Below are positions 34,001-63,918 of a DNA stretch of 64,000 nucleotides, piece after piece. Position 1 is the stretch's first letter. Each line of letters begins with the position of its first letter. The notes beneath the pieces are model-generated. The model saw only the letters and a list, made by a program, of their open reading frames with translations, was not told the origin of the DNA and searched no databases. The position numbers were made by a program, and so were the translations under genes. Where the stretch lies: IMG/VR virus record IMGVR_UViG_3300042508_000526; one strand, 5' to 3'. Source of the stretch: a virus (Duplodnaviria; Caudoviricetes).

Positions 34001-34034
34001 AACGTGCTCCTTTTGGTTTAAACCTTACACGGCA

Positions 34035-34961: not shown

Positions 34962-35001
34962 TTTGGGAACCTCCATGTTCCTGAATTAGTTAGGGATTAG
35001 A

Positions 35002-35645: not shown

Positions 35646-36068
35646 TCAGGCAGTGGGCGGATTGAGACCAAGGCCAGTGAACAACTTCACATCGGAAGCC
35701 TTGAGGCGACCATCGCGGGCACCCACATACCCGCTCGTCAGACTGTTCGTCGGATCATAACCAGCGGTCTTTGTGGCCACCGGCGTACCGAGACGCGCCA
35801 TTTCAGCGGCGTTACGATGCGACGCTAATTTGACGACAAGTTCCATAGTGCGCACCGGATCTTGAAGCGCCGCAGCGAGCGCTTCCTTCTGGTGAGCTTC
35901 AATCCGCTCGTTATCCACGCACGCCTTTACGGCTTCGGGGATCAGGTGAGCGAGCTTTTCAGCAGCCTCATCCTGCGCCTTTTGGGCGGCGGCGGCTTTG
36001 GTCATCGCGGCATCGGAGTAACCGATGTAGTCGATGATTTTCTGTACGAGCGCGTTAGTTTCGGCCAT
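35646..36068 (-). CDS. Helical head-assembly protein (140 aa)
   Basis: Ala/Lys/Glu-rich; K-x-A motifs; GGAGG RBS. Confidence 0.6.
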   Translation of the reverse strand: MAETNALVQKIIDYIGYSDAAMTKAAAAQKAQDEAAEKLAHLIPEAVKACVDNERIEAHQKEALAAALQDPVRTMELVVKLASHRNAAEMARLGTPVATKTAGYDPTNSLTSGYVGARDGRLKASDVKLFTGLGLNPPTA

Positions 36069-36088
36069 AGTAAAAAACCTCCGTGTAA

Positions 36089-37438
36089 TCAGCGATTCAC
36101 AAGTTCAAGCACATGCTGCTTCATCATGTCCCGCAGTTCGCGCGAACGCTTTGTGCGGGCCTCTTTAACTTGAAACCGACCAGCGCGCTTGAAGTTGACA
36201 ACAGCACGACCAATCGCGTCTAAGTCTTTAGCAGCGGCAGTCTTCGGGGCTTCGGGCATCGGGGCAGCTTCGGGAGCGGGGCCGGCTTCGCCGCCCATAC
36301 CGCCACCCATGCCGCCTTCTTGCACAGCTTGCAGCAAGGCTTCGGGCGGGATGCCAAGCTCTTCAAGAGCCATCGCTAGCTCTTGCACAGCCTCGTCTTC
36401 CGACGGCTCGCCACCTTCACCAGCAGCTTCGGGCGCCATCTCGCCGCCTTCGCCGCCCATCATGGCTTCAAGACCAGCCGGAGCGCCACCAGCTTCGGCA
36501 GCCGGGGCGTCACTCATACCAGACGCAGCATCGCCCGGGGCAGAATGATCTTCGCCCTCAGCGGCTTCTTCAGTCGGATCAGCACCGGCTGTCTTAGCGT
36601 TTAAAAAACCGATGAACAGGTCAGCCATTTCATCGGCGTCGCGGAGCGTGTTAGCGCACACCTCGCGAACCGAGGCTTCAGCAGCAGCCTTGTCCATGCC
36701 AAGAGCAGCGGCAAGTTCATAGCCGGCTTTGAAAGCAGCTTCTTTGCCCGACCGCAGCGCAGCGAGATCAGAACCCTCGATCTTACCGTCGTTGTCCGTG
36801 TCGAGCTTGTGCTGATCACCCTTTAAACCGCTGCCGGAGTGCTCGGCTTTCTCCTCAGCGGGAGACTCTTTTTTTTCTTCGGCCTTTTCTTTCAGGAAAG
36901 CCGGCATCTCAGCCGCCTTCTCGTTTACAAGCTTGCCGGTACCGAAATTGATCAGGTTGGCAAGAATATCGTTACCAAGCGAAGCAGCGCGGTCACGAGC
37001 TTCCTTGAACGAGACAGACGAGTACTTCTCGCCGTCATCCGCCTTCACCGGCGAAGAAGTGCCGGGATCGTCTTTCGTGCCCTTAAAGTCTTTTTCATTG
37101 GACGGGTCTTCGCCGGTCGCCTTAGCAGTCACGCCGATGTTTGTCTGCACATCGTCTTGACGACCTTCTTGCGACATCTCCGGTGTGTTGTCGACAGAGA
37201 GAGCACCTTGCTGCTTCTTGATGTCGGACTCGTACTCAGAAGCGCGCGCACCGGTGTTAGCGTTTTGAACGCCGTTGTCGGCGCTAGTAGTCGGGTGCGA
37301 GGAGGCGCCTTGATAACCGCCCGGATCGGCAGGCACGGGGCCAGCAGATTTTTCGGCCGCCGTCTTCACGGGGCTCTGCGAGATCTCTTCGGCGAGAGCG
37401 TTAAGTTGAGCGAACAGTGAACGTTGCATCCGTGCCAT
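36089..37438 (-). CDS. Capsid scaffolding-like protein (449 aa)
   Basis: Acidic low-complexity sequence between protease and MCP; many K-x-A motifs; AAGGAG RBS. Confidence 0.65.
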   Translation of the reverse strand: MARMQRSLFAQLNALAEEISQSPVKTAAEKSAGPVPADPGGYQGASSHPTTSADNGVQNANTGARASEYESDIKKQQGALSVDNTPEMSQEGRQDDVQTNIGVTAKATGEDPSNEKDFKGTKDDPGTSSPVKADDGEKYSSVSFKEARDRAASLGNDILANLINFGTGKLVNEKAAEMPAFLKEKAEEKKESPAEEKAEHSGSGLKGDQHKLDTDNDGKIEGSDLAALRSGKEAAFKAGYELAAALGMDKAAAEASVREVCANTLRDADEMADLFIGFLNAKTAGADPTEEAAEGEDHSAPGDAASGMSDAPAAEAGGAPAGLEAMMGGEGGEMAPEAAGEGGEPSEDEAVQELAMALEELGIPPEALLQAVQEGGMGGGMGGEAGPAPEAAPMPEAPKTAAAKDLDAIGRAVVNFKRAGRFQVKEARTKRSRELRDMMKQHVLELVNR

Positions 37439-37481
37439 GACTTTCTCCTTTAGGGCCTAACCGTTTCCGATTAGCTTCCGT

Positions 37482-38933
37482 TCATGTGACATAATTTTGC
37501 AATACACAGTGGTTTGCTGTCAACCAATGATTCCCGTGTTTTTCACAAATGGCAGCATAAGCAGCAATCTTATACAGCGCGTAGTGTTGTGCAAGAGCTG
37601 TTTCAGCTGCTCCACTGGCTTGTTTATACGACGGAAACTCATCAGACTGAACACCGCGAAGAACCGCTAAATAAGCACGTTTCTCTACGTTGGTCAGTAA
37701 TACGCTATGGGTGTGTGCTAGTTTTTCTGCCCATACACGTGCACTTGGCGACGCAGCAGGAGCAGGATAGTAGGCGTTGTTTTCTAGTAGCTTAACGACA
37801 TCCGCGTCGTTGGCTAACTTCGAAAATATGTTAGGCAGCGCATTAACCACTGCACTAACAAGTCTCGCATCGGCGGTCTTTACTGTCAACGCTAAAAAGT
37901 CCCGCACAGGCAGAACTACTCCGGCGTCGGCAAGGCCGCGCAACACTTCGGATATTTTAACAGAATAGCAGGCATTTACATCAATAGGTGTTTGCACAGC
38001 CGGCGATGACGCCAGCGCCACCTGCGCCCAGCTATGCCCGGCAGTCGCTGTTTTCTCAGCCGCCGCCAGTTGTGTTAACGCCTCTAACTGCTGCTGTACC
38101 CGCGGTAAAAGCGGCTCGCCGCTGAAGTTAATAGGCGCGGTTACACCCAGCTGCTCGGCGAGTTCGGACCCGGATAGACAACCTGCTGCGGCAGCCTTGA
38201 GCTGCCCAGAGACATAAGCGATCCTGTCAGCCGGCCGGAAAACGTGAGAAATATCAAAAAACGTGGGGTTTGGGTTGTCGGCGTGCAGGACGTGCCCGTC
38301 TTCAAGCACGCGCCCCATGTTGTGCCGCAAGCCGCCGGCTTTACAGTGGCCGCCGCGCTCAACAGAGTCGCAGTACTCTGCGCGCGTCTTGGCTTTGTTT
38401 CCGCACGACGAGCACTTATCGAATGGAATCTTGCAGGCCATGGACACAGCGATGTCGTCGCCCTTAGCCAGCTTTTCTAGTTCCTTGTCGGCAATAAGTC
38501 CGCCGTTTCGATCCGCCGCTTCTTTACTTCCGTTTAGAGCGACGACTAACTCAATTCGCTTCATCGGCTCGTGGTACGCCGACGCTTTTACTAAGCCGAA
38601 AGACTTTGCCGGGTTCTTATTGGCGTGGTCGCGATAGAACCGCGCAAACTTCTCAAACGTTTGGTGGTAGTTACGGCAACAATCGCGCGTAAATCCGTCA
38701 CCGTTTCGGTTCGGTCCGTAGTCCTCAGTAGCGCCGATGGCGATCATATGCACCGGCACTTCGTCTTTGGCAAACTTGATGTTCTCAAGTTTATGCGCAA
38801 ATTCAGCGCCGGCGCGCTTAACAAGCTCTTGGCGATCAGTGCCGATAATGCCGCGGCTTGATACTTTTATCAAAGCGGCTACGGGCTCGCTAAAATCCTG
38901 CGCATGCGGTTGAATGACTTTAATCATGCTCAT
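37482..38933 (-). CDS. Prohead maturation protease (HK97/assemblin-type) with Cys-rich insert (483 aa)
   Basis: GPNRNGDGF; FYRDH (His); VSMAC (Ser); FFDISHVFRPADRIA; CSSC...YC...HC insert. Confidence 0.8.
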   Translation of the reverse strand: MSMIKVIQPHAQDFSEPVAALIKVSSRGIIGTDRQELVKRAGAEFAHKLENIKFAKDEVPVHMIAIGATEDYGPNRNGDGFTRDCCRNYHQTFEKFARFYRDHANKNPAKSFGLVKASAYHEPMKRIELVVALNGSKEAADRNGGLIADKELEKLAKGDDIAVSMACKIPFDKCSSCGNKAKTRAEYCDSVERGGHCKAGGLRHNMGRVLEDGHVLHADNPNPTFFDISHVFRPADRIAYVSGQLKAAAAGCLSGSELAEQLGVTAPINFSGEPLLPRVQQQLEALTQLAAAEKTATAGHSWAQVALASSPAVQTPIDVNACYSVKISEVLRGLADAGVVLPVRDFLALTVKTADARLVSAVVNALPNIFSKLANDADVVKLLENNAYYPAPAASPSARVWAEKLAHTHSVLLTNVEKRAYLAVLRGVQSDEFPSYKQASGAAETALAQHYALYKIAAYAAICEKHGNHWLTANHCVLQNYVT

Positions 38934-38935
38934 AG

Positions 38936-39916
38936 TTATTCACCTGCGGCTGCGCCGCTGCTAAAGCTGTTCAATGCCGCCGGCCCGGCCAGCGCGCCTA
39001 GCAGCGGCAGACCTAAACCCACAAGACCGCCGCCGCGACGGGGTAACCGGCGCAGCGCCTGTCGCAGCTGCGCGCCCGTTAGCTTGCGGCCGGCAGTGCC
39101 GACGCCAGCAGCCGGTTCGGCGGCGATGGCAGTTAAAACGTTTGCCGCGTCATCTGCGTTGCGTCCAAAAAGGCCGCCAAAGAAGTTACCGCGAGCAGTA
39201 TTTCTCGCGGACTGTACGCGCCCCGCTACGGCAGACGGCGACGTAATACCGGCATCTTCTAGGTGCATGCCGACGTCGCGGGCAAGATGATCTTGTCCGC
39301 GCGCCAATGCCTGCAACCGGCCCATTAACGTTGGGTTGTTTACTGGCGGAGCGGCGCGGAGCCGATCTGTTAAATTTTCTGTGATTTTTGTAGCGCCGCT
39401 GGTTGAACGCAGGCTGTCAACGGTTGGCTGCAGTTGTTTGGCAATGGCTGGATCAGCTGCGAGCAGACGGTCTAACTTGCCGTGCGCGTCGATTGCATTG
39501 GCCACTTGCCGGCCGCCGTAAGCGCCAGCACCGGATGCCGCAAGGCCGGCGACTGCGTTAGCCGGGTTATTGTCGTACTTAGCTTCCGCTACAGCTGCAG
39601 GCGGTGTTGCCGGCGTTAGCAGCATGTTCTTTGCCGCCGTAGCCCCGAGTCCGCCGAGGCCGCCCATGAGTGCGTAGTCCAGCGTGGCGCGGCGCTTCTT
39701 CTTACCCTGCAGCATGCCAATAAGCCCACCAGCACCGGCGCCGATCAAGGCGTTTTGGGTGTACGGGCTGCTGAGCACGTCTTTCAGCTCAAGCGCCTCT
39801 TTTTCAAAGTGCAGATCAACTACAGCGGCAGCAAGTTTACTGCGTTCGGGCACCGGTTCGCCCAGCGCAATGCCGGACAGGCCACGAGCAAGTTGTTTTG
39901 CGTCATCTGTGTGCAT
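38936..39916 (-). CDS. Glycine-zipper head-associated protein (326 aa)
   Basis: ALIGAGAGGLIGML, ALMGGLGGLGA and GGGLVGLGLPLLGAL hydrophobic GxxxG segments; KLA and KEA motifs. Confidence 0.6.
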   Translation of the reverse strand: MHTDDAKQLARGLSGIALGEPVPERSKLAAAVVDLHFEKEALELKDVLSSPYTQNALIGAGAGGLIGMLQGKKKRRATLDYALMGGLGGLGATAAKNMLLTPATPPAAVAEAKYDNNPANAVAGLAASGAGAYGGRQVANAIDAHGKLDRLLAADPAIAKQLQPTVDSLRSTSGATKITENLTDRLRAAPPVNNPTLMGRLQALARGQDHLARDVGMHLEDAGITSPSAVAGRVQSARNTARGNFFGGLFGRNADDAANVLTAIAAEPAAGVGTAGRKLTGAQLRQALRRLPRRGGGLVGLGLPLLGALAGPAALNSFSSGAAAGE

Positions 39917-39925
39917 GGCTAAATC

Positions 39926-41305
39926 CTAGATCAGTTCGCGCGCCTTGGTTTGCGCTTCGAGGTTGGCCTTTAGACTTTCAGCGCGCAGCTTTTCCATCTC
40001 AATCATCTGCTTAACGTCGAAATCGGCGAGCTGACCAGCTTCTAACCGCTTGCGCAAAAGAGCCTGCATAGCCGCGCTAGATCCTGTGAAATTTGGCGCC
40101 ATCTCGGCAATTTGGTTATACGCGCTGGCCACTTCGTGCGGATCGTAACCCGAGATAACTGGGTCGTTTAAAATCAGATCATTTAACACGCCGCGCGACT
40201 TTATCTGCTGCAACCTGTTCTCATGATCAGAGTCCGAAATGCGCATGTATGCTTTTTCTTTTTGCGCTTTCGGGTCGCCTGCCGCATCCGCTTTCGCGAG
40301 GGCAGCTTGAGGGCCCATGATTTTGCCCATGTGCGAAATTACACCGCTATACGAGCCTAGCGGGGCCGGTTCGGGTTGCTCAGGTTTTTTTTTACCTTTA
40401 GCGGCGACGGCGGCCACTTTTAGGGCCAACGGCGCAGTTTTAGCGTCGTATAGAATTGAGCCAGTTACTACTTCCGGCGCAGCCTTCGGGGTTTGCGCAG
40501 AAGCCGTTTTTTGCGAAACGTTGCGCTGGGCGTCGTTGTACGCTGTAACGTCGCGCACTACCTGCTCGACTAACGTCACAACAGGCAACGTACCGAAGTA
40601 GTCGTTTTTCGTCGTAGCCTGTTTTGCTAGGTGCGGATAAACAGCCGCAACTTTCTGCAACACCGATACGCCGGTCTCGCCAAGACGCAAGCCGACTTCG
40701 CGCAGCGCATCGTTAAACGACATGTTGCCGGGCACACGGAAATACTCGCAGAGCTTTTCCATGCTCGCAGCAGCTTTCGAGTGCGCGGCGGTGGCCTGTC
40801 GCCGCAGTTCTTCAGCGGCGCGCTTTTCCGCGACGCGCTGGCTGTACTCGCGGCGAGCTGCGGACAGCTCATCACGCGGCGCGGGCGTCCACGTGCTGGC
40901 GGGCAACTCATACTTAGCCGCAGCCGCTTTTTGCTGCGCGGCAGCGCGACGACCAATAAAGCCGGCCGGCGACACAGCGTATTCTGTTGAAACTGTCGTG
41001 TCTTGGCGCAGCTCTGCTGACGTTTTAACTTGCGCCGGATACAGAGCAGCCATTACCTTATTCGCGTCGGCTAACTGAAAATCAGCCGCCTTCTCTACTG
41101 CGTCTTCGCCCTGTTCGCGCTGTTTGTTTGTGCGGCCTGTGTTGTACGCGTGCACCATAAGATTAATGTGCCCGGCGGGAACATTAGCGTCGCTGGCGCT
41201 TTTGATGATGGCGTCATTCGGCGACGCGCCATCGTTTACAAGTGACGCCGCGCGCTCAATTGCGCTGATCAGTTTCTGCTCAGCTTCTTTACTTAATGCC
41301 CGCAT
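39926..41305 (-). CDS. Helical head-associated protein (459 aa; start moved to ATG 41305)
   Basis: GGAG RBS; multiple K-x-A motifs. Confidence 0.65.
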   Translation of the reverse strand: MRALSKEAEQKLISAIERAASLVNDGASPNDAIIKSASDANVPAGHINLMVHAYNTGRTNKQREQGEDAVEKAADFQLADANKVMAALYPAQVKTSAELRQDTTVSTEYAVSPAGFIGRRAAAQQKAAAAKYELPASTWTPAPRDELSAARREYSQRVAEKRAAEELRRQATAAHSKAAASMEKLCEYFRVPGNMSFNDALREVGLRLGETGVSVLQKVAAVYPHLAKQATTKNDYFGTLPVVTLVEQVVRDVTAYNDAQRNVSQKTASAQTPKAAPEVVTGSILYDAKTAPLALKVAAVAAKGKKKPEQPEPAPLGSYSGVISHMGKIMGPQAALAKADAAGDPKAQKEKAYMRISDSDHENRLQQIKSRGVLNDLILNDPVISGYDPHEVASAYNQIAEMAPNFTGSSAAMQALLRKRLEAGQLADFDVKQMIEMEKLRAESLKANLEAQTKARELI

Positions 41306-42236
41306 TGTTAATCTCCGGATAATGCAAAGCTTCGATGGTTGTTTGGTTATCCAACTTCCCGCCGACAGCCACAACCATTAGTTCATCGTTTCTTAATTCA
41401 GCGGCGTTATTATCATAAGGTAACATTTTTCTGGCTTCGGAATCTAGCTTTGTACCGACGCCAAACGGCAGCGACGAGAGCATTGCGCCTATATTTTCAA
41501 CAATTGTGGTGTGGGCTTTGCTCGCGTTGTCCGTGTTCCGCTCGATCTCGACATATTTTACAAAAGAATCGATTAGCGGTAACTGGGTATGAGTATTAAC
41601 TGGCACGCTGAGGCTGGCAAGGGCGGCTTTGTACTTCATGCAGCTAACCGCCATGTCCTGAAAGTAACTAGAAACGCCGTCCGGCCCTTCTGGCCGCGGA
41701 ATTGCGCCAAATTTATTTATCACCGCATCAATGACATGCGTGCCGCCACGAAACCCCAGCAATTTCCACAGTAAGTCGTAGTGCCGCTCCTGAAGCCCGC
41801 GCGTCACCGCCTCAGCCATGATTACATTTTGCACGTAATCCATGTTGTCGAGCTTTTCGCGCACGTCGAAAAACGTGTTGATATAAGCGGCGATTACCTC
41901 TGTTTTTGTGCCAACGCGTTGAGCGATTTCTTCGTCCGTCTGCCCCGCCAAAACACGCGCCTCGATTCCCCAGCGTGTTGGCGTTTTATCTTCACTCCAA
42001 ATTGTGTGCGCCCAGTACAGGTCGGGGTCTCGGTGAAGGATGGCGTAAAGAGACTGCGGGCGATTGTTTGCGCGCTCAAAGTGCCGTTTAAGCGTCACGG
42101 CACGGCGAATCCATTTAAAACCGTCCGGCCCGTCGATTGTCCGTGACGCGCGAAAACCACCGCTATCAATTTCAATCGCGCGCAGCCACCTCCAGTTTGG
42201 CGCGCGGCGCGGACTGTCGCGTAACGAGTTGTTCAT
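41289..42236 (-). CDS. Hypothetical protein with HTH-like segment (315 aa)
   Basis: IEARVLAGQTDEEIAQRVGTKTEVIAAY. Confidence 0.55.
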   Translation of the reverse strand: MNNSLRDSPRRAPNWRWLRAIEIDSGGFRASRTIDGPDGFKWIRRAVTLKRHFERANNRPQSLYAILHRDPDLYWAHTIWSEDKTPTRWGIEARVLAGQTDEEIAQRVGTKTEVIAAYINTFFDVREKLDNMDYVQNVIMAEAVTRGLQERHYDLLWKLLGFRGGTHVIDAVINKFGAIPRPEGPDGVSSYFQDMAVSCMKYKAALASLSVPVNTHTQLPLIDSFVKYVEIERNTDNASKAHTTIVENIGAMLSSLPFGVGTKLDSEARKMLPYDNNAAELRNDELMVVAVGGKLDNQTTIEALHYPEINNAGIK

Positions 42237-42620
42237 TTAGCGCAGCGTCGGGGTGTCGACCGTGACCGAAAACACGAGCGTCTTCGTGGCGGCCGGAGTA
42301 ATTTTCAAATACAAATAACGCTGCGGATTTGTCGGCGTGCCGTCTCGGTTTAAATACGATACGTCTAAGTCGTTTTTGAACGGCGTCGACTGATCAAACG
42401 ACAGCACTTTAAAAGTGTCTGCGGGTAATGTGCTATTTGGCGCCTTATCTTGCTTGCTCGAATACAGCGTCGCAGAGAAGTTGCCAGTAGCCCCGCCGGC
42501 AGCCTCAACAAGGCTATACCCGCGCAATACGGCGCGATGCGGCATCGGCACGGCAATTGTGTTAGCTTGCCCGCCAGTGGCTTCAAATGTAACGCTGCCA
42601 GACCAAACTGTACTTGGCAT
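42237..42620 (-). CDS. Small beta-sandwich virion protein (127 aa)
   Basis: Alternating beta pattern; AGGTGA RBS. Confidence 0.55.
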   Translation of the reverse strand: MPSTVWSGSVTFEATGGQANTIAVPMPHRAVLRGYSLVEAAGGATGNFSATLYSSKQDKAPNSTLPADTFKVLSFDQSTPFKNDLDVSYLNRDGTPTNPQRYLYLKITPAATKTLVFSVTVDTPTLR

Positions 42621-42629
42621 ATTTCACCT

Positions 42630-45008
42630 TTAGACGTTTGCAACAGCGCTAAGATCAACGTTTTGCGCCGCTTCTTCGGGATACGGTTCAACGGTTTTTT
42701 GCTTAAGGAACAGGATCACGTCGCCCAGCATTTCAAACGCGTTGCGCAGCGAATCCTCAAGCTCGGGCATGTCGGCTTTGCCGTAACGCTCAGCAAACCG
42801 ATCGCCGTGCCAGTAAAACATAAACAGGATACGGCCCAGCTTGTCGAGCCCCTTTGTCAGTTCGCCCATATACCGATCGACCAACGAGTCATCGCGGACG
42901 GCGCGCAGCATCGAACCGACCATGGCCGTGTCAAACACTTCACGCTGCCCGCTCTGCGCGGCGTCGATGACGGACCGCACATCCTTTTGGTCAAACATCG
43001 GGTTGGGGTTGTAAATCTGCCGATCCGTGTTGCTGGCGCTCATGCCAGATACCGGCAAGCCAACGTCGATGCCAAGCTGCGTCGGCACGCTTGTACCCAT
43101 GATGCTTTCGCCGCCCATAACGGCACCCGGATCAGACGGCGCGTTCGGCGCGCTGTTCACAAGCATCGGCCCGCCATACGGATCAGCGTACTTCACGCGG
43201 CACTCAAACTTACGTTTCGCGGAAGCCTGCTTTAAGATCTCGCGGGCAGCTTCTTCACGCAGACCGTGATGCTCAACAAGCGTAACGAGCGCTTTGATCG
43301 GGCTGACCGCCGCGGCTTTGTTAATCGTGACTTCGGTGCCGGTGTGGTACACCGTCAGCGACGCTGTCTTCTGGAACAACGCCAGTTGCGCGTCAACAAG
43401 ATTGCCGGGCTGCAGAGCCGGCGGATCACTCTCGCCGCAACCGCAGGCGCTTTGATCTTCGGCTGTTTCCTTGTCGTCTTCTCCGCGGCTGACGTTCAAC
43501 AGCTTAAAGCCTTCGGGGACAAAGATGTCGCCCATGCTCGCCCGCAGGCTGGAGCCCTTCTTGCCGTTTAAATGCAGACGGACACCGTCGCGCCACTTGT
43601 CGTAGTTTAACGGGTCGTTGTAGCAGCAGGGCGAAATCGTGCCTTTCGGCGGATACTTGGAGTGATCTTCTAGATGCACTTCGTAGCATGTATCGCCGTC
43701 GCCTTTGCCGTATTCTTTGATAACACGAAACGGCGCGGTTGTGTCACCGCGTCGGCTCAGCGCTACATAACGGCTCGACTTGTTCGGAACACTGTTGGCG
43801 TCGGGCAGGCCATCAAACCACTTGTCGAACTCTTCGCCTTCGATCCGCGATAGCGCAAAGACCTGATCGGCACGGGTGTTAAGCCAGTTACGCGCGCCCT
43901 CGACGCGAATAACGGTCACAAAGTTTTCGCGCTTTGCGGCACCCTGCGGATGAACGGCGACATAGCAGCGCTCAACTCCACCCGGCTTGACCAGAATCTC
44001 GTACAGCCCGCTCTCGGTCGGGTTAAACAGTTTCTTTTCGACTTGGATATGATACGGTACCGATACGTTATCACGATCACGCTGGTCGAGAATCAGTACG
44101 CCGTCGCGCAGCAGCTTTTCTTGATCTTCTTCCGTATGGCCAGCCGGCAGCTTGGTCTGCACTGTGGCGTCATACGTGATAACTTTCAGTCCCGTTGCCG
44201 ATTCGGGCTTTTCGGGTGCTTCTGAAAGTACGCTCGCTACTTTCGGCTGATTTTCGCGCGCCTTGGCCGACGCGATAGCTTGCTTAATAACATCTAGCCC
44301 GTGGAACTCGTCGATAGCCGCGGCAATTTGCGGCGCATGCTTGCAGGTGTTAACAAGCGTGCTGATCATTTGCAGACCAGCTTCTTTGAGCAAAAACGTT
44401 TTTAGATTCAGCGCGTCGCCAATTTCTTTAAACGTCTGTTCGGTGTTCAGGGTTGCCGACTTCGCAAACGCACCGATGGCGGCGGCCATCATCTCTTTGA
44501 GCGTCGGCTGCGCCGATCCAAACTTTGCCGGGCTCCGCGACAGCTGCGTAAAGTCTGGCTGGCGCTGACCAAGCCGCGACAACGACCGGTCGACGCCGCT
44601 ACCGAGAATGTTCGGCTTGCGGTTGATTAGATAATTAATCCAGTTTTCCTTGAGCGGCACGAACATGTCCTGATTCTTGATGTACAGGAGTTCGTGGCCC
44701 TTGAGGTCGCCATTGAGGAAGAATACCGGCGCATACAGCCAGTTAGAGCCGACCTTAAACGCAAAGACGCCAACGGCCTTTGTGTTTTCTTTGTTGCGGT
44801 CGAGAAGCTGGAAACCGATTTCGTGGTCGAGCAGTTTGGGCGCTGAGTCGCGCAGATAGGCGTGCGCCAAGTTGCTAAACGACTGCTCAAAGGACGTGTC
44901 GTCGCCTTTTCCGCCGAGATCAGCATATTTGGTTTGCGTGCGATCGTACGACCGCATTACGTTTAACCAATGCTTTACAGACGACTCTTTAGCTTTTTTG
45001 TTGTACAC
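42630..45008 (-). CDS. Large head-associated protein (792 aa; start moved to GTG 45008)
   Basis: GGAGG 6 nt upstream of GTG; K-x-A motifs (KYA, KSA, KEA, KTA, KAA, KQA, KYA) separate apparent domains. Confidence 0.65.
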   Translation of the reverse strand: MYNKKAKESSVKHWLNVMRSYDRTQTKYADLGGKGDDTSFEQSFSNLAHAYLRDSAPKLLDHEIGFQLLDRNKENTKAVGVFAFKVGSNWLYAPVFFLNGDLKGHELLYIKNQDMFVPLKENWINYLINRKPNILGSGVDRSLSRLGQRQPDFTQLSRSPAKFGSAQPTLKEMMAAAIGAFAKSATLNTEQTFKEIGDALNLKTFLLKEAGLQMISTLVNTCKHAPQIAAAIDEFHGLDVIKQAIASAKARENQPKVASVLSEAPEKPESATGLKVITYDATVQTKLPAGHTEEDQEKLLRDGVLILDQRDRDNVSVPYHIQVEKKLFNPTESGLYEILVKPGGVERCYVAVHPQGAAKRENFVTVIRVEGARNWLNTRADQVFALSRIEGEEFDKWFDGLPDANSVPNKSSRYVALSRRGDTTAPFRVIKEYGKGDGDTCYEVHLEDHSKYPPKGTISPCCYNDPLNYDKWRDGVRLHLNGKKGSSLRASMGDIFVPEGFKLLNVSRGEDDKETAEDQSACGCGESDPPALQPGNLVDAQLALFQKTASLTVYHTGTEVTINKAAAVSPIKALVTLVEHHGLREEAAREILKQASAKRKFECRVKYADPYGGPMLVNSAPNAPSDPGAVMGGESIMGTSVPTQLGIDVGLPVSGMSASNTDRQIYNPNPMFDQKDVRSVIDAAQSGQREVFDTAMVGSMLRAVRDDSLVDRYMGELTKGLDKLGRILFMFYWHGDRFAERYGKADMPELEDSLRNAFEMLGDVILFLKQKTVEPYPEEAAQNVDLSAVANV

Positions 45009-45088
45009 GGCCAGCCTCCATGCGGCACACAATTAACAAACCGCTGTAATTTACCGACTTGCGGTCCCTATATCGTACAAAAACTAGC

Positions 45089-55891: not shown

Positions 55892-56365
55892 TCAAGCCGT
55901 CGGCTCTTCGGGCGTAACCGGAGCTTCAGGGGCCGGCGACTCGCTAACAAGCGTGACACCGAGGAACCCGGGCTGCGCCGGCGGAAGCGTGTCGACCGCT
56001 GTAAACTCATACTCAGCGGCCGGCGAAACGTTGCCGGCATCGTCGACGTCAACCAGCGAGAGCTTGACCACGGCGTCTTGCGGTACAACCACAACGCCGA
56101 GATCTTCGCTCACCGGGTAAGACGTCGAACCTTTTTCTTCACCATTCACGGTCACCGACAGAATACGCGACACGACATCGCTGTCGACGGGCGCACCGGC
56201 GGAAACACGATACGTAAGCACATCAGCCATATTTACATTGCTCCTGATCTGCACTACTGTTAAGCCAACCGGCTCCGATGGCCCGTGCAGGGCAAGCCAT
56301 TCGTGTAACACTACCAACAACCAAAAGACGAGACATACGAGCAGTACGGCAACGCTGAGCGCCAT
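55892..56365 (-). CDS. Membrane-anchored Ig/FN3-like protein (157 aa; possible internal start at 56230)
   Basis: N-terminal hydrophobic helix; VSLVDVDDAGNVS FN3-like strand; AGGAG upstream of the internal ATG. Confidence 0.55.
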   Translation of the reverse strand: MALSVAVLLVCLVFWLLVVLHEWLALHGPSEPVGLTVVQIRSNVNMADVLTYRVSAGAPVDSDVVSRILSVTVNGEEKGSTSYPVSEDLGVVVVPQDAVVKLSLVDVDDAGNVSPAAEYEFTAVDTLPPAQPGFLGVTLVSESPAPEAPVTPEEPTA

Positions 56366-56366
56366 G

Positions 56367-56825
56367 TTATTTCTTACCATTAGCGGAATTGGCTACCGTG
56401 ACACATGCTTCAATAAGTTTTGCGCGAGTGGCGTCGTTTGCAGGCACAACGTCGTCCGTACCAACAGCCCGCAAAAATACCGCCTCAATTGCCTTGTCGA
56501 GGTCGGGGTATTTGCCCGGAGTGTCGATAGCCATGTTGAGCGTACGCGCCTGTAACTCAGCCCATTGCTCTGTCGTAACAATACGCTTGACCGGCTGACC
56601 ACCGTCGCGCCGCAGTACTTCCGCAAGGCCGTTGTACACGCCGTTAATTCGGTCGGTATCGACGGTGTCTGCGTCAACAAGCAGCTCGACAATCTTGGTG
56701 TCTGTTGGCCCCGCGGGCGTGACTGGCGCGACAGGCTTTACCTGCGGAATTAACGACGGCACGCCGTTCGGAAACACGAACGACAAAGCGAGCAGCAAAC
56801 CAAAGACCCAAACAAGCTTTTTCAT
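56367..56825 (-). CDS. Exported or membrane-anchored protein (152 aa)
   Basis: MKKLVWVFGLLLALSFVFP signal-like N-terminus. Confidence 0.65.
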   Translation of the reverse strand: MKKLVWVFGLLLALSFVFPNGVPSLIPQVKPVAPVTPAGPTDTKIVELLVDADTVDTDRINGVYNGLAEVLRRDGGQPVKRIVTTEQWAELQARTLNMAIDTPGKYPDLDKAIEAVFLRAVGTDDVVPANDATRAKLIEACVTVANSANGKK

Positions 56826-57097
56826 ACAACACCCTTTGACGGTTGCTCATACTCTACGATCACACGCAGTAGCGACGTGCAGGCTTCGACACCGGCCCCG
56901 CAGCCCTCCGCGGCAAGCTTGTCGCGCAGCTTGGTGACGGCAATGATATCGTCCACAAGCGGCACAGCGATCGACGCTGTCACGCCGCCCGTTACCGTTT
57001 TGTCGGCGCGGCGGATGAGGCTAAGCAGTTTGTCGCGGTATGTTACCGCCAGCGCAACTACGAACAGACCAGCCAGTACCAGTTGAACCGTATTCAT
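56822..57097 (-). CDS. Small membrane protein (91 aa; start moved to ATG 57097)
   Basis: GGAGG RBS; N-terminal TM segment LVLAGLFVVALAVTY. Confidence 0.6.
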   Translation of the reverse strand: MNTVQLVLAGLFVVALAVTYRDKLLSLIRRADKTVTGGVTASIAVPLVDDIIAVTKLRDKLAAEGCGAGVEACTSLLRVIVEYEQPSKGVV

Positions 57098-57130
57098 AGA
57101 ACCTCCAATTGAAAGTAACACCCTAGTTTA

Positions 57131-57952
57131 TCAAGTTTGCGGCACCAGTACATACGGCCGACCGTTAATCACAATAGTGCCGTTAATTTGCAGTCCAGCA
57201 TCTTTTGTAATCGGATAAACCGCGGTGCGCTTTCCGTAAAGTTTTATGATTTCGGCGATATCGCCTTCTTGCGGTTTTGTTACGTTCGGATCGTAGTAGG
57301 GCGCCATCAGGTTACCCGCGTTTAAATGCGGTAGCCCCAACGCGTGCCCCAGCTCGTGACAAATAACAGCAACAGCCATGTTGAACGACCAGTCTTCCGC
57401 TTCGTCGAACATCTGATCAAGCTGGACGTTTTCGGCTACACCGCACGGCAACTCGCTCCACGCCAGTGTGCCGCCCTTGTTATCTAAACCGTTTTTCTTT
57501 CCGACACCGGAGCGCGCATAAATGTTCGCCTTGGTGTGCGTATCGACGCGCTGCGGCTCCAGCGCACACACCTCTGCCCACTGCGAAAACGCAATGTCGT
57601 AGGCTTCGGCCACCTGCTGTTCTGTCAGCCCCGGCAAATGGATTTTGTGATAGTACGTCACATTCGGCATCGGCCACTTGCACGGATCGCCGCCCGGAGC
57701 GGTGATATTGAAGTCCGGCAGACCGCAGCGCCGCTTGTTGATGCGATGCGCTGTCTTGGGGCCCACAGTACCTGTGGGGTTTAAGCCGTTAAACGACTGG
57801 AAGGCGCGGATCGCTTTTTGCAACTCCGCGCCTTTAATCTTCTTGACCTGCGCCAGCGTTTTATCGCCGAAATACCCCAGCGCATGCAGCCGCGTGAGAA
57901 TCTCGCTGATCGGTAAAACGTGGGTTTCGTGAGCGGTTGGCTTCCGTGCCAT
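57131..57952 (-). CDS. Pro-matrixin (M10 metallopeptidase) with PGBD-like prodomain (273 aa)
   Basis: AIRAFQSFNGLNPTGTVG (PG-binding-like); cysteine switch RRCGLPD; HELGHALGLPH zinc motif; Met-turn LMAP. Confidence 0.9.
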   Translation of the reverse strand: MARKPTAHETHVLPISEILTRLHALGYFGDKTLAQVKKIKGAELQKAIRAFQSFNGLNPTGTVGPKTAHRINKRRCGLPDFNITAPGGDPCKWPMPNVTYYHKIHLPGLTEQQVAEAYDIAFSQWAEVCALEPQRVDTHTKANIYARSGVGKKNGLDNKGGTLAWSELPCGVAENVQLDQMFDEAEDWSFNMAVAVICHELGHALGLPHLNAGNLMAPYYDPNVTKPQEGDIAEIIKLYGKRTAVYPITKDAGLQINGTIVINGRPYVLVPQT

Positions 57953-57973
57953 CGTGCGCCTCCGTGCTTGATG

Positions 57974-58381
57974 TTAGCGCGCGGGAGCCAGTTCCATTAG
58001 CCCAGCAGCCGCGGCATCATCAATTGTATCACTTAGGCTGTACACAGCACCCACAACTGGATTATCACGCGTATAGGTCGTGCCAGTCTTTGCGCAATGT
58101 TCTCGCCATAAATTATTTAACCGACGGCGCAAGCGCATTAACTTCCGCGGCGGCAACGTGCGAAGCTCACGCATGTTTTGCGCAATAGATTCGTCCGAGT
58201 TTTGCTCGCGGCAGTGAATGATTACCTGCACCAACACCGAGATAATCATGATTACGAGAATCGGATCAAACTGGCAGTTCTCGTTATCTGCCTGCAGCAC
58301 AAGCTCATCCGTGAGCTTGCGTTGCAGGTCTTGCAAAGCCGGAGACGCAGCGATCCGCTGCTGCAGTTCTTCGGTGGTCAT
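57974..58381 (-). CDS. Hypothetical protein with central hydrophobic helix (135 aa)
   Basis: PILVIMIISVLVQVIIHC; TGATG coupling. Confidence 0.6.
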   Translation of the reverse strand: MTTEELQQRIAASPALQDLQRKLTDELVLQADNENCQFDPILVIMIISVLVQVIIHCREQNSDESIAQNMRELRTLPPRKLMRLRRRLNNLWREHCAKTGTTYTRDNPVVGAVYSLSDTIDDAAAAGLMELAPAR

Positions 58382-58752
58382 CAGTTCGCAGTCCTTTCAG
58401 CGCGCATCTTCTCGACAGCCACGGCTTCCATGTAGCGATACCGCGCATCAATCATCTGGGCACGCAGCTCAGTGCGACCAGCCAGATACTTCCAAATCAG
58501 CGCGCTATTGAGCACAACAATCTGCGTTGCGCCGACAATCGCCGTCACAGCCTTGGTCAGCGTCTCGGCCTGCGAGGTGTCAACCCATCCAACCAGAACG
58601 CCCACCGCGATCAGATTGCTGACAGCGCCCACAGCCATGGTCCAGAATTCCGGCGTCAGCCAGTTTCCGGTATCTACGTTCACATCGTCAGCGGCGCTAT
58701 TTAAAACGCGCAGCTCTTCGCGGACAGTTTCAACGCTTTTTTTGATCGCCAT
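58381..58752 (-). CDS. Two-TM membrane protein, holin-like (123 aa; start moved to ATG 58752)
   Basis: WLTPEFW then two hydrophobic helices and a charged C-terminus; AAGGAG RBS. Confidence 0.45.
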   Translation of the reverse strand: MAIKKSVETVREELRVLNSAADDVNVDTGNWLTPEFWTMAVGAVSNLIAVGVLVGWVDTSQAETLTKAVTAIVGATQIVVLNSALIWKYLAGRTELRAQMIDARYRYMEAVAVEKMRAERTAN

Positions 58753-58818
58753 AACACGCTCCTTAAGTAACGAGGAAAGCACATTATGCCCCGGATATGT
58801 TCCGGCTGCAATACGTTT

Positions 58819-59853
58819 TTATCGCCCAAACAGACTGGGTACGACGGCGTGCATCATACCGCCCCATAACCCCAGATCTTGTAACTTTGCTTGCCCAGCT
58901 GGTGTTAATCCGGCCATGGCTGACAGCGCTTTACCCGCCAGCGTCGCCGTGGCAAGCCCGACGCCCGCCGAGGCAATACCGTGAATAACGTCAATGGGCC
59001 GGATAATCGGGGATTGCATACTAGTGCTGATGCCACTCATTAAACCGGTCGTGGCCGCGGCGTAAGCTGGCGGCGTGTAATTGCTGAAGTTACCCGCCCG
59101 CATGCCGCGATTTACGTCTTGCCACGCGGCCTGATTAAACTGCGGCACGCTTACAATGGGGCTGTAGAGCGCTGGCGGCTGCCCCGGAAACATGCTGCTT
59201 TTTTCGCGCTCTTGCATCTTTTTTTCATACGGGTACACAACCGCCGTATTGTTATTTGTGATCAGGCCACGCGGAAAGCTTGTACGCAGCGCGCGGGCAT
59301 TGGCATAGCCGCCAAGCCCCGCCACGGCAGCGCCGCTCAGCGCGCCGAGTAAACCCAGCGTGCGGCGCAGTTTTCCGCGCTCGATATAGCGCTCTGGAAA
59401 CAGCTGCTCCGCGAGCATACCGGCGCCGTATCCAGTTCCGCCGGCAAGTAAGCCGGTCATAATGCCGTTCGACAGCGGCGATGGTCCCGCCAGCAGGGTG
59501 TTGCCCGTGTTCCACACCGCTGGCAAGCCGGGAACCAAGGAACCACGTTTGACGACGACCTGCTGCGCAAAATCGGGTGTTGCAGAAGACAACAAATGCG
59601 CCGCGCAGCTATATCCGCGTTCCGCCATAACCGCGGCGTACTTTTCGCGGGCATCGGCGGCGATCTCAATCGGGCTGTATAGCGTAACGGCGTTTGTGGT
59701 GGGATTCCAAGCCGCTACGGTATGCGACAGCACGTGCGTAGCTGCGCCTGCCTGCTCGTGCGCAACTTTGACCGCATGCGCACACGGCAACAGCTCTGCT
59801 ACTCGCGCCGGCACACGCTGCCAGTCCTCGACGGTGTAGATACTGGTTGTCAT
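58819..59853 (-). CDS. Glycine-zipper multi-segment protein (344 aa; start moved to ATG 59853)
   Basis: GLLAGGTGYGAG, GLLGALSGAAVAGLGG and GIASAGVGLATA; KVA, KYA, KRG and KSS motifs. Confidence 0.6.
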   Translation of the reverse strand: MTTSIYTVEDWQRVPARVAELLPCAHAVKVAHEQAGAATHVLSHTVAAWNPTTNAVTLYSPIEIAADAREKYAAVMAERGYSCAAHLLSSATPDFAQQVVVKRGSLVPGLPAVWNTGNTLLAGPSPLSNGIMTGLLAGGTGYGAGMLAEQLFPERYIERGKLRRTLGLLGALSGAAVAGLGGYANARALRTSFPRGLITNNNTAVVYPYEKKMQEREKSSMFPGQPPALYSPIVSVPQFNQAAWQDVNRGMRAGNFSNYTPPAYAAATTGLMSGISTSMQSPIIRPIDVIHGIASAGVGLATATLAGKALSAMAGLTPAGQAKLQDLGLWGGMMHAVVPSLFGR

Positions 59854-59854
59854 A

Positions 59855-60118
59855 TTAGTGCGCAACTGAAAAAACGAAGCGAAGTGCCAGCGAAATCCAC
59901 GCAAGAAGTCCGCTGATAGCTAAAAAAACAATAATCGCAGTCAGCAGCGCCACGCTACCCAGTTTTTCGAACGGAATTTTTTTAAACAGGTTCCACGCGC
60001 GCAGGTAATCAATCGCGTTTGGGGGTTTAGGCGGCGGTGCGGGCGCAGGTACAGGCTCGGGTTTTTTGGTATCGATCCCTAGAGCTTTTTTGATCATGTC
60101 GAGCAGCGGTGTGGCCAT
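59855..60118 (-). CDS. Small membrane protein with Pro-rich linker (87 aa)
   Basis: PEPVPAPAPPPKPP plus C-terminal TM; TAATG coupling. Confidence 0.6.
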   Translation of the reverse strand: MATPLLDMIKKALGIDTKKPEPVPAPAPPPKPPNAIDYLRAWNLFKKIPFEKLGSVALLTAIIVFLAISGLLAWISLALRFVFSVAH

Positions 60119-61425
60119 TATTTCTTCCCCCAACGAGAGATAGTGTCAAAAATATCATTGCCGTAAAGCTGCACAATCTTGTCCGTGGGGTTCATTTGCG
60201 GCAGCGTGCCGTTAATCGCCATCTGCGCCACTTGATAACGATAGTTTGGGTCAAGCTGCGACCGGTACAAGTGTGATTTATGCCGCGCCGCCATAATAAA
60301 GTCGCCGCGCTGTTTGGCCTTGAGCAAATGATCGGTCACGTTTTGAAAAACGGGCTTACTGTGGTCGTAGATAAGCGGCTCGCGGAAGTTCAATAGGTTG
60401 CGAAACTGTTGCCCGTACACGCTAGCGCCAGCTTTCTCTATTTTTTGGACTTTTTTGTAGTAGTCGGGGTCTTCGGACAAGTGATCCTTGGCAATTTCTT
60501 TGGCAACTTGACCATTGTCTGTGTGTTCGCGCTCATGTTTAGCTCCTTCAGCTAAAGCAGGTTCAGAAAAATCCCGATCGGGTAAATTATCGGCTTCACC
60601 GCCCGGTAACAGGTCTTTTTGTCCCGAACGGGAAAGTGCGTTTGGCTGCTGTTTTTCTGCGGCAGATACCTTCTCGGCGGCGCAGCGGCCGGATTTTTTA
60701 CACACGCACGTTTCAGGGCACATGCACGGACCGGAGCAGCCACAGTCGTACGTGGTCTTATCATCCGCGGCGGCTTTGAGTTCTCCCCTGCTGATGGGGT
60801 TACTAAACCTATGCTCGTCGGCGCTTTCGGCCGAGGTTTCGGAACCCTTGGCCGTGCCGTTGTCGCGTAAAACGCCTTTGCGCCGGACAGCGAATGTGAT
60901 GTGAAACGGTTGATCGTCCTTGGGCAGCGCCGAAAGGCCGTAACTCTTGCGCAAGGCAGACAGCGCCGGACTGAGCACATGTAGCGCCCATACTTTGCTG
61001 ACGCCGCGCACGTTTTTGACGTCAATTTCTTTTAGGCCGCCCAGCGTATAGCCGAACATGTGACCGCGTTCGTTAATCTTGTCGCCGCCGATTGCTTCTA
61101 CTTCAGCCGCCGTCATCACCGAGATGTGCGCATTGACCAACTCGCCATCGACGTTTGGTACATTCATCACGCCGGCAGTCGGCAGCTCAGTGCCGGGCTC
61201 GGTAAGGGCGTCAAATACACCGCGGACGAGCGCGTTGGGCACCGCCAGCAGCAACCAGCCGCTTTTTGCGAGATATAGCCGACCCGAAAGCGGGTAGCTC
61301 GTGGCGGCGTTCTTGTCGCCGCTCATATACAGCCAGCCTAGCGCGTTGCCAGCAGCGTAGGCGGGGTGCTCGCGGAAGTATTCCGAGTCCCACGCGAGCG
61401 GATCTAAAGCGGATAGCGTATCCAT
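60118..61425 (-). CDS. Multidomain protein: 2H phosphoesterase + Cys cluster + DUF5661-like domain (435 aa)
   Basis: Two HxS/T motifs (HISV 61117-61128, HITF 60892-60903); CGCSGPCMCPETCVCKKSGRC; GAKHEREHT...AKEIAKDHLSEDPDYYKK. Confidence 0.75.
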   Translation of the reverse strand: MDTLSALDPLAWDSEYFREHPAYAAGNALGWLYMSGDKNAATSYPLSGRLYLAKSGWLLLAVPNALVRGVFDALTEPGTELPTAGVMNVPNVDGELVNAHISVMTAAEVEAIGGDKINERGHMFGYTLGGLKEIDVKNVRGVSKVWALHVLSPALSALRKSYGLSALPKDDQPFHITFAVRRKGVLRDNGTAKGSETSAESADEHRFSNPISRGELKAAADDKTTYDCGCSGPCMCPETCVCKKSGRCAAEKVSAAEKQQPNALSRSGQKDLLPGGEADNLPDRDFSEPALAEGAKHEREHTDNGQVAKEIAKDHLSEDPDYYKKVQKIEKAGASVYGQQFRNLLNFREPLIYDHSKPVFQNVTDHLLKAKQRGDFIMAARHKSHLYRSQLDPNYRYQVAQMAINGTLPQMNPTDKIVQLYGNDIFDTISRWGKK

Positions 61426-61441: not shown

Positions 61442-61517
61442 TGGCTGCCTGAGTAGGACTCGAACCTACGACCCGGCGGTTAACAGCCGCCTGCTCTACC
61501 AACTGAGCTATCAGGCA
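61442..61517 (-). tRNA. trnN: tRNA-Asn (GTT)
   Basis: 76 nt; acceptor stem TGCCTGA/TCAGGCA; D-arm TAGCTCAGTTGGTAGAGC; anticodon arm GGCGG-CTGTTAA-CCGCC; GGTTCGAGTCC T-loop; encoded GCCA end. Confidence 0.97.
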
Positions 61518-62901: not shown

Positions 62902-63918
62902 TCACAAAATCTTGGCCGCAATGAGACAACCGCGCGCGACCGCATGCAGCGGATCATTGGCGTGACGTACTTCTTTGACCGGCAGCGGAAAACCATGCTC
63001 GTCAAGTTTCTTTTGAAACATTTCAACGAAGCCTTTAGCGCGTGTCGTGCCGCCGGCCAATGTTATCAGAATCGGCTCTTTGAACTTGGGCAGAGCTTTG
63101 TGGCCCTGTAACGCGTGCGCAAGCATCTTCACGGTGTAATCGATCAGACGCTCGTAGTACACGCTAACAGCAGACAAAATTGCGCTGTCACTCTGCTCGC
63201 CAATCACAAACGTGCCGTGCTCTTTCTCTGCCTGCACAACTGAATCCGGCTCATTTGTGGCAACGGCCGTCATGCGGTCAATCCAGTCGCCGGACTTCGT
63301 TGTCGAAAACAGCACGGTGGGTTCGCCGTTGAGCATGACACAGCAATTCACCATGCCCGCGCCCCACGACAAGCCAATGCCGGTGTAATCATCGTTTTCC
63401 AGCTCCGAGTAGCACAGCGCTTCGGCTTCGTTAATCGCCCGGGCCGTGTAACCCTGCTCCGCCAGCACCGTGCGCACAACGTCTTCGTGATACGCGACGT
63501 CAAAATCATCGTCTTCCTGATCGACGGGCTGGGCCGGCACGCAAAAGATCAGCTTTTCGTGCGGCTCGCTGGCGGTGCCGACAACTTCCTTGAGGATAAA
63601 CGCCAGCACGCGCTTGGCTTCTTTTTCCTTGGGGCTAACCACGCCGCGATACATGGGGCGCTTGGCCGAGTCATTGCGCTCAACGGCCTTTTCGATGGCG
63701 TCTTGGCCGAGAATAATAAACGTGCCGTCGGCGTCGCGCACAAATACCTTACCCTGTAGACCTTTTTCGATCATCTTGGTGGCCACGGGGGTCGTCGGCT
63801 TGATGACGTAAAACGCATCGCGGAAATCTTTGTATTGAACGCTGGCCGCGACGGCAGAGTCCAGCGCGTCTTGCGCCAGCACGATAAACGATGTTCCGAC
63901 GTCTAAACCCTTAGCCAT
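62902..63918 (-). CDS. Actin-fold ATPase, volactin/MreB-like (338 aa)
   Basis: Phosphate-1 GLDVGTS; connect-1 INEAEAL; phosphate-2 GLSWGAGMVN; adenosine LAGGTTRAKGF; connect-2 NDPLHAVARG. Confidence 0.9.
   Translation of the reverse strand: MAKGLDVGTSFIVLAQDALDSAVAASVQYKDFRDAFYVIKPTTPVATKMIEKGLQGKVFVRDADGTFIILGQDAIEKAVERNDSAKRPMYRGVVSPKEKEAKRVLAFILKEVVGTASEPHEKLIFCVPAQPVDQEDDDFDVAYHEDVVRTVLAEQGYTARAINEAEALCYSELENDDYTGIGLSWGAGMVNCCVMLNGEPTVLFSTTKSGDWIDRMTAVATNEPDSVVQAEKEHGTFVIGEQSDSAILSAVSVYYERLIDYTVKMLAHALQGHKALPKFKEPILITLAGGTTRAKGFVEMFQKKLDEHGFPLPVKEVRHANDPLHAVARGCLIAAKIL

Follow-up and report, generated by a model that had tools for sequence, protein, structure and literature searches.

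The locus at positions 60118-61425 (minus strand) of the virus record IMGVR_UViG_3300042508_000526 (Duplodnaviria; Caudoviricetes) raises the question whether a phage protein of 435 amino acids (aa), which holds several unrelated domains between short lysine-containing linkers, is cut apart and delivered with the DNA or works as one enzyme. The stretch that was analysed (the window, 64,000 nucleotides) comes from a viral genome recorded as complete, 203,206 bp long and bounded by direct terminal repeats. A preliminary description had regarded the gene as polyprotein-like cargo, from which the head protease would release a two-His (2H) phosphoesterase that destroys alarm nucleotides of the host. 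The protein is a modular phage protein with a tag helix, an apparently intact 2H domain, a 7-Cys module, DUF5661 and a helical C-terminal domain. The best explanation for the whole would be a polyvalent effector with K-x-A joints that is cut by the head protease, packaged and delivered, and we give this reading about an even chance.

Modules of the 435-aa protein

The open reading frame (ORF) was real, with an AAGGA ribosome-binding site 8 nt before its ATG. Its parts are given below, where pLDDT is the predicted local distance difference test score of the AlphaFold model and (-) the minus strand.

60118..61425 (-), the whole ORF, 435 aa plus stop with ATG start, a modular (polyvalent-type) phage protein
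61306..61425 (-), N-terminal tag, residues 1-40, with a helix at residues 21-36 (PAYAAGNALGWLYMSG) and then disordered G-D-K-N-A in the AlphaFold model
60847..61305 (-), 2H phosphoesterase domain (2H-SAK), residues 41-193, matched by Pfam and by 2H structures (Z 5-7.6), pLDDT >90
61117..61128 (-), first catalytic motif H-I-S-V (H100), residues 100-103
60892..60903 (-), second catalytic motif H-I-T-F (H175), residues 175-178
60763..60846 (-), disordered linker, residues 194-221, with the conserved S-R-G-E-L-K-A-A-A joint, pLDDT <50, first cassette slot in relatives
60676..60762 (-), Cys mini-module, residues 222-250, TTYDC-x-C-SG-x-C-x-CP-x-TC-x-CK-x2-G-x-C, an optional cassette
60619..60675 (-), linker, residues 251-269, with the degenerate joint E-K-V-S-A-A-E-K and the L-S-R-S-G-Q-K motif
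60427..60618 (-), DUF5661, residues 270-333, matched by Pfam, with GG-x-AD, E-x-EHT and A-x-EIAKDHL-x-EDP-x-YY, pLDDT 90-97
60121..60426 (-), C-terminal helical bundle, residues 334-435, after the joint K-A-G-A / S-V-Y, second cassette slot in relatives

Every string quoted earlier was present at its place, including DKNAA (residues 37-41), HISV (100-103), HITF (175-178), ELKAAA (215-220), EKVSAAEK (251-258), EHT (300-302), IAKDHLSEDPDYY (311-323) and EKAGA (330-334). The AlphaFold model was built from an alignment of 140 sequences and reached a pLDDT of 82.5, against only 34.6 for a single-sequence model. It was confident at residues 41-188 (2H) and 270-435 (DUF5661 followed by three to four long helices) and intermediate in the Cys module (pLDDT 62-72), and fell below 50 at residues 36-40, 189-221 and 251-265. 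These low segments were exactly the joints D-K-N-A-A, K-G-S...E-L-K-A-A-A and E-K-V-S-A-A-E-K. No family in PHROGs or NCBIfam matched the 435-aa protein. The C-terminal bundle had no Pfam family, and its fold matches were only of the generic helical-bundle type (Z <6). Fold searches, made with the model of the whole protein, gave nothing specific for DUF5661 or the bundle, either of which may still have a known fold.

Swapped cassettes and K-x-A-[AS] joints

At least 446 homologues were found at E<=1e-3 by a word-indexed search (8000 candidates scored), all of them unnamed and many on contigs of 190-215 kb, and an exhaustive search gave 5132 clusters at 50% identity. The cluster matches nearly always corresponded to residues 20-200 and formed the N-terminus of proteins of 187-1428 aa. 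In an alignment of 121 close relatives the head (residues 1-195), DUF5661 and the C-terminal domain were constant, and two slots, one after position 220 and another at position 333, were variable. The first slot, behind S-R-G-E-L-K-A-A, could be empty, or could contain the Cys module, a NUDIX domain (two kinds were found), a piece resembling acylphosphatase or domains of unknown type. The second slot lies between DUF5661 and the C-terminal domain, where many relatives had an extra module of ~75 residues ending in V-K-A-A. This module (residues 329-424 of relative P0003; ILDELRAAK...THTPTKFRFH...VKAA) belonged to no known family, and a cassette with an acylphosphatase-like signature (Pfam E 0.02) was observed at residues 191-405 of relative P0069.

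Among 84 remote relatives, Pfam identified 2H-SAK in 80, DUF5661 in 26, NUDIX in 14, InPase in 11 and a C39-like peptidase in 4. The LigD_N 3'-phosphoesterase (3 relatives), P-loop kinase-type (3) and ATP-dependent ligase (2) domains were found in a few, and SNF2, SET, GNAT and a sigma-factor piece were present as well. The family is one of a constant 2H head with swapped modules behind it, at one syntenic gene.

Several unrelated effector-type domains in one phage polypeptide are also typical of the polyvalent proteins of phages and conjugative elements (Iyer, Burroughs, Anand, de Souza and Aravind 2017, PMC5512222), and 2H, NUDIX-associated InPase, GNAT, SNF2 and papain-like peptidase domains recur in the 2H-headed family. 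Unlike many polyvalent proteins, the 435-aa protein lacks a processing peptidase of the zincin type (MPTase), which is common among them though not universal, as well as a MuF or portal domain, and Pfam found no peptidase family in it. Another difference is that the junctions carry K-x-A-[AS], which is common to the head-assembly proteins of the phage. The protein belongs to the polyvalent kind, with a junction code that is apparently undescribed. Limited literature searches found no description of a K-x-A protease motif.

In the 435-aa protein itself, strict K-x-A was present only at K38 and K217, and the count alone was not above chance. Among the 121 relatives, K-x-[AS]-[AS] recurred at position 38 in 113, at 193/217 in 93, at 252-258 in 45 and at 331-333 in 30, confined to the junctions and never within folded domains; most of these relatives also had the looser K-x-A-x(0-3)-S-V-Y. 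Each inserted cassette ended in its own K-x-A-A. In the remote relatives the head was framed by L-x-K-x-A before and N-x-V-S-K-A-A after it, beyond which the sequences were unrelated. The second frame belongs to the nearly invariant N-x-[VT]-x-K193 end of the 2H domain, whose lysine was kept in 95% of remote relatives.

The motif was then counted in 90 remote relatives, where K.A[AS] was observed 170 times against 55 +/- 7 in shuffled sequences (~3-fold). The controls stayed flat, with 58 against 53 for the reversed motif, 57 against 59 for R.A[AS] and 56 against 56 for E.A[AS], and K.G[AS] was depleted (21 observed, 49 expected). Because it is enriched and conserved at junctions while the reversed, R and E controls are flat, K-x-A-[AS] is a specific, directional linear motif in disordered linkers. 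The earlier proposal that K-x-A sites separate the domains therefore stands for the relatives, in which these sites are conserved, directional and placed at junctions, but in the 435-aa protein only two of the four joints are strict K-x-A.

The same motif was found in the head module (35646-45032, minus strand), in proteins of 140, 449, 483, 326, 482 and 800 aa. Over nine ORFs, beginning with the capsid gene and ending with the portal-like gene, K.A[AS] occurred 22 times against 5.9 expected, a number reached by none of 500 composition-preserving shuffles, and the reversed motif occurred 8 times against 6.1 expected. Genome-wide, K.A[AS] was weakly enriched and its reverse likewise; the K-x-A signal is limited to the head-module proteins and the 2H-headed family. 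Orthologues were aligned from 37 related loci, with 25-29 of them for the scaffold-like protein and each of its neighbours. The conservation of K and A at the sites was 0.92-1.00, while that of the middle residue was 0.00-0.67 and that of the flanks 0.37-0.83. All four sites of the scaffold-like protein (449 aa) kept K and A in 96-100% of orthologues and the middle residue in 0-46%, and five of the seven sites of the 482-aa protein behaved in the same way, with flanks conserved at 37-73%. In the major capsid protein, a K-Q-A close to the N-terminus was discarded as uninformative, for its surroundings were equally conserved.

The gene at 37482-38933 (minus strand) encodes a candidate head protease. 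Its N-terminal ~240 residues were highly conserved, and an invariant K246-A-A was present exactly at the end of this conserved half. H62 and S111 were invariant and are spaced like the two catalytic residues of the HK97 protease. In addition, a weak language-model likeness (0.88-0.89) to prohead proteases (S78/S77/S80) was found in the Atlas.

These head-module data bear on a rival explanation, in which the 435-aa protein is made during infection, acts uncut in the cytoplasm as a multi-domain enzyme and is never packaged, and K-x-A-A is kept for other reasons. The motif could then be a linker or helix-capping element, a partner docking motif or a recombination joint for cassettes, the last of which agrees with the fact that cassettes clearly move between proteins and have the joint at their ends. 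It is, however, also enriched and selectively conserved in scaffold-, protease- and portal-like proteins in which no cassettes are swapped. It does not tolerate R in place of K and its reverse occurs at expectation, unlike a generic Ala/Lys-rich linker, and it is located in predicted disorder. With this balance the uncut enzyme appears rather unlikely to us, and further points in its favor are given below.

For cutting and delivery, the nearest known systems are those of large phages with head proteases. The ejection proteins of SPN3US and phiKZ are cut by gp245 and gp175 at A-X-E, and in SPN3US some N-terminal propeptides are as short as 20-24 residues (PMC10052503). In T4 the capsid-targeting sequence of IPI-III and Alt, which is cut by gp21, is likewise an N-terminal peptide ending in a protease-type motif. 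T4 and phiKZ-SPN3US resemble the phage analysed here in that one motif recurs in scaffold, protease and portal proteins, but the motif is L/I-x-E or A-x-E in the former and, as a putative cutting site, K-x-A-[AS] in the latter. Moreover, the sites here would part several folded modules, whereas those of T4 and SPN3US only remove a propeptide.

Since the K-x-A joints are real, directional, conserved and common to head-assembly proteins, cutting by the head protease is a reasonable inference, and we place it, together with the packaging and delivery that it would bring, slightly below an even chance. K-x-A would be the recognition site of the head-maturation protease of this phage clade. The protein would be loaded into the prohead, possibly via its N-terminal tag, cut into separate modules and delivered along with the DNA. 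Early in infection the 2H module would hydrolyse 2',3'-cyclic, 2'-5' or cyclic-oligonucleotide phosphodiester bonds, and its substrates may be alarm nucleotides of the host or else RNA ends (damaged or target).

A wider version of this proposal can be put forward only tentatively. K-x-A-[AS] may be the head-protease code of a clade of large (~200-kb) freshwater phages, and the 2H gene may be a hypervariable cargo polyprotein that is loaded by its tag, cut at every joint and injected. The freed effectors would be the 2H enzyme, a metal-binding peptide of ~30 residues with six or seven cysteines, and DUF5661, together with NUDIX, InPase and peptidase modules in relatives. The phages would change the injected arsenal by swapping cassettes between K-x-A joints.

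As for the tag, the remote relatives shared the pattern Y-x-x-G-x-A-x3-L-x-K-x-A. A regular expression for it had 7 instances in this genome (1.65 expected), 5 of them within the first 70 residues of a protein, and among these five were three neighbouring genes, 7-11 kb upstream, that have no 2H domain. No other protein of the genome was matched by a hidden Markov model (HMM) of the leader of close relatives.

A number of results weigh against cutting and delivery by a head protease. Two of the four joints of the 435-aa protein are degenerate (K-V-S-A-A and K-A-G-A), and bare K-x-A was not enriched genome-wide (289 observed, 302 expected). No head protease was identified by sequence profiles from Pfam, NCBIfam and the PDB, and none of these recognized the candidate at 37482-38933. 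The HMM of the tag from remote relatives was marginal, and its top match was the N-terminus of 71872-72696 (E 0.048). The N-terminal helix aligned structurally with 2H-SAK proteins in the database, and judged from the model it may be part of the 2H domain and not a removable tag. The 2H gene is situated outside the head module, ~15 kb upstream of the portal-like gene on the same strand, between metabolic-type genes and a possible lysis cassette. When 50,697 phage records were searched by tblastn, only the DUF5661 piece was matched, in 5 records, and there was no cultured relative. The degenerate joints, the want of a protease identified by HMMs and the position outside the head module, near metabolic-type genes, a tRNA and an actin-like gene, also speak for the uncut enzyme.

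The 2H domain and the smaller modules

Residues 94-183 matched the Pfam family 2H-SAK (PF22547) with 31.9 bits against a cut-off of 27 (E 1.8e-7), and H100, V103, H175 and T177 were each conserved in >=90% of 140 sequences. In the structural comparison, residues 54-187 aligned to >25 solved 2H enzymes with Z 5-7.6 and no competing fold, and the Foldseek probability for a 2H match was up to 0.96. As only 2H enzymes match the fold and both H-x-[ST] motifs are conserved, the domain is in all appearance an active 2H enzyme, which confirms that part of the preliminary description; its subfamily and substrate were not separated by fold scores of the model.

The excised 2H domain had been proposed to be an Acb1-like enzyme, injected with the DNA, which would destroy the cyclic-oligonucleotide signals of the CBASS type (cyclic-oligonucleotide-based antiphage signalling system) or other such signals before phage genes are expressed. 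Acb1 of phage FBB1 (PDB 7T26/7T27; 57B in T4) was indeed the top row of the structural aligner (Z 7.6, root-mean-square deviation 3.5 A, 108/137 residues), and it shares the 2H fold and the two H-x-[ST] motifs. By the rule of the aligner, however, this row counts as a tie with LigT-type enzymes (6.5-6.6), Usb1 (6.4), the penguinpox cyclic GMP-AMP (cGAMP) phosphodiesterase (6.3) and the BCSR5 phosphodiesterase of a Burkholderia phage (6.2), which lie ~1 Z unit lower. Foldseek put Usb1 first (E 0.011), before the penguinpox enzyme (0.14) and Acb1 (0.2), all within a range of weak E-values (0.01-0.5), and in a library of viral structures the Acb1 entries scored no better than those named 'RNA 2',3'-cyclic phosphodiesterase'.

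The identity to Acb1 was only 12-13%, and a sequence profile of the 2H-headed family searched against solved structures matched no 2H enzyme. Acb1 is also a stand-alone protein of ~150 aa, unlike the 2H domain here, which is the N-terminal module of 435 aa (up to 1428 aa in relatives). It is in favor of Acb1-like activity that NUDIX and InPase modules of the relatives act on nucleotides too, and that breakdown of signalling nucleotides is one of the roles proposed for the 2H domains of polyvalent proteins, next to that of an RNase, in a paper which also proposes injection of such proteins (PMC5512222). The anti-CBASS function was not specifically supported by these comparisons with Acb1 and LigT, and we regard it as improbable.

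The other reading of the domain concerns RNA ends. The 2H enzyme would open the 2',3'-cyclic ends of tRNAs or mRNAs cut by ribonuclease defences of the host, so that they can be resealed, or would act as a Usb1-like 3' exoribonuclease. LigT, the archaeal and bacterial 2',3'-cyclic phosphodiesterases and Usb1 have the same fold (Z 6.2-6.6), but no sequence relation was observed, and the domain here adds an N-terminal helix and the conserved N-x-V-x-K-A-A tail. The assignment to 2H-SAK, the rank of Usb1 as best Foldseek match, the tRNA gene 16 nt upstream and the few relatives with LigD_N, P-loop kinase-type or ATP-dependent ligase modules would be in line with RNA ends as substrates. Against them stands the complete phage genome, which contains no Rnl2-type RNA ligase or RtcB and is therefore a mild argument against a self-contained repair pathway. 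In addition, the 435-aa protein has no kinase, HAD or ligase module, and in polyvalent proteins 2H domains are reported not to occur together with RNA ligases (PMC5512222). We consider action on RNA ends to have the same low probability as Acb1-like activity. Judged from the fold, signalling nucleotides, RNA 2',3'-cyclic ends and Usb1-like trimming are not separated as possible substrates.

The Cys cluster was exactly located and counted before, with all 7 cysteines within residues 228-248 (60682-60744) and the spacing CxC-x3-CxC-x3-CxC-x5-C. Six invariant cysteines in CxC pairs and the seventh are accompanied by conserved T-T-Y-D, S-G, C-P and C-K positions. The module was present in 52 of the 121 close and 11 of 147 remote relatives, always between K-A-A and K-x-A-A. 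The N-terminal domain of plant type-1 metallothioneins has the Cys spacing CxC-x3-CxC-x3-CxC. The name metallothionein-like thus holds for the Cys spacing only: the module here is a cassette of 25-30 residues inside a phage protein with conserved positions of its own, and a Pfam search with residues 205-262 found no metallothionein or other family at E <= 1.

DUF5661 was correctly recognized, since residues 294-331 matched PF18905 with 36.8 bits against a cut-off of 27 (E 4.9e-9). Its conserved core consists of E-x-E-H-T and D-H-L-x-E-D-P-x-Y-Y. The H-E-R-E-H of this module was considered as the HExxH of a minimal zincin and rejected, because its first His is poorly conserved and the core is E-x-E-H-T. 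DUF5661 was also found as a stand-alone domain and in fusions with HD domains. One Atlas cluster joins it to a crAss cargo-protein domain, and this pairing is a weak hint at virion cargo (PMC10172136). A limited literature search found nothing on DUF5661. Just before this domain is L-S-R-S-G-Q-K-D-L (residues 263-272; 60610-60639, minus strand), which was observed in one to three tandem copies in relatives (example FSRSGAKLSRAGQNDL); no other copy of the L-S-R-S-G-Q-K motif was found in the phage genome.

Genomic setting and meaning of the locus

Nearly all genes of the phage are carried by the minus strand, and a fused multi-subunit RNA polymerase, a tail-sheath-like gene and an HK97-fold capsid gene were present in the genome. 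The capsid gene (34035-34976, minus strand) matched an HK97-fold major capsid protein model with E 1.6e-6, and most of its homologues begin at the second Met (308 aa). A long ORF on the plus strand (33852-35000) is the shadow of this gene. Two features adjoin the 2H gene directly:

61442..61517 (-), tRNA-Asn (GTT), 16 nt upstream of the 2H ORF
59855..60118 (-), small ORF for a tail-anchored membrane protein, Pro-rich in the middle and with its membrane helix at the C-terminus

The tRNA-Asn and the 2H ORF are probably co-transcribed. No sigma-70-like promoter was found around the 2H gene, and terminator-like matches were at chance level. The tRNA had 93-95% identity over ~60 nt to the tRNA-Asn genes of Virus Rctr197k and Pseudomonas phage vsMR. 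The ATG of the membrane ORF overlaps the 2H stop codon by 1 nt, which makes the two translationally coupled, and the coupled pair was kept in relatives (at 9866 in locus L002 and 9332 in locus L003).

A Volactin-family actin-like protein is encoded at 62902-63918 (minus strand; Pfam E 1.6e-63) and has the same position in the related phage of L003. On the other side of the 2H gene, a Matrixin (M10) peptidase with a PG_binding_1 domain was found at 57131-57952 (minus strand). It is flanked by small membrane proteins and a glycine-rich protein of 361 aa, and this neighbourhood (55892-59904) could be a lysis cassette or an entry/ejection set.

The synteny was the same in close and remote relatives, with the actin-like and metabolic-type genes upstream. 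Downstream of the 2H gene, the order in relatives was the coupled membrane protein, the glycine-rich protein (330-360 aa), two small proteins, the matrixin/PG-binding peptidase and the RNA polymerase; the matrixin gene and the 2H gene stayed together even in remote relatives (L041). Because the position of the gene is kept in close and remote relatives alike, the 2H locus is one syntenic site with a fixed head and a fast-changing cargo.

If the joints are uncut, the locus would still be a clear case of a polyvalent-type effector gene that stays in one place and swaps its modules fast. If they are cut, the injected effectors of abundant uncultured large phages could be read from sequence, and a new protease specificity would join L/I-x-E and A-x-E, the two so far known for the heads of large phages. 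A viral-polyprotein strategy would then exist in a tailed phage, and the many unnamed cassettes would be candidate counter-defence modules. Tag plus joint could also be used to load foreign proteins into capsids, like the targeting sequence of T4.

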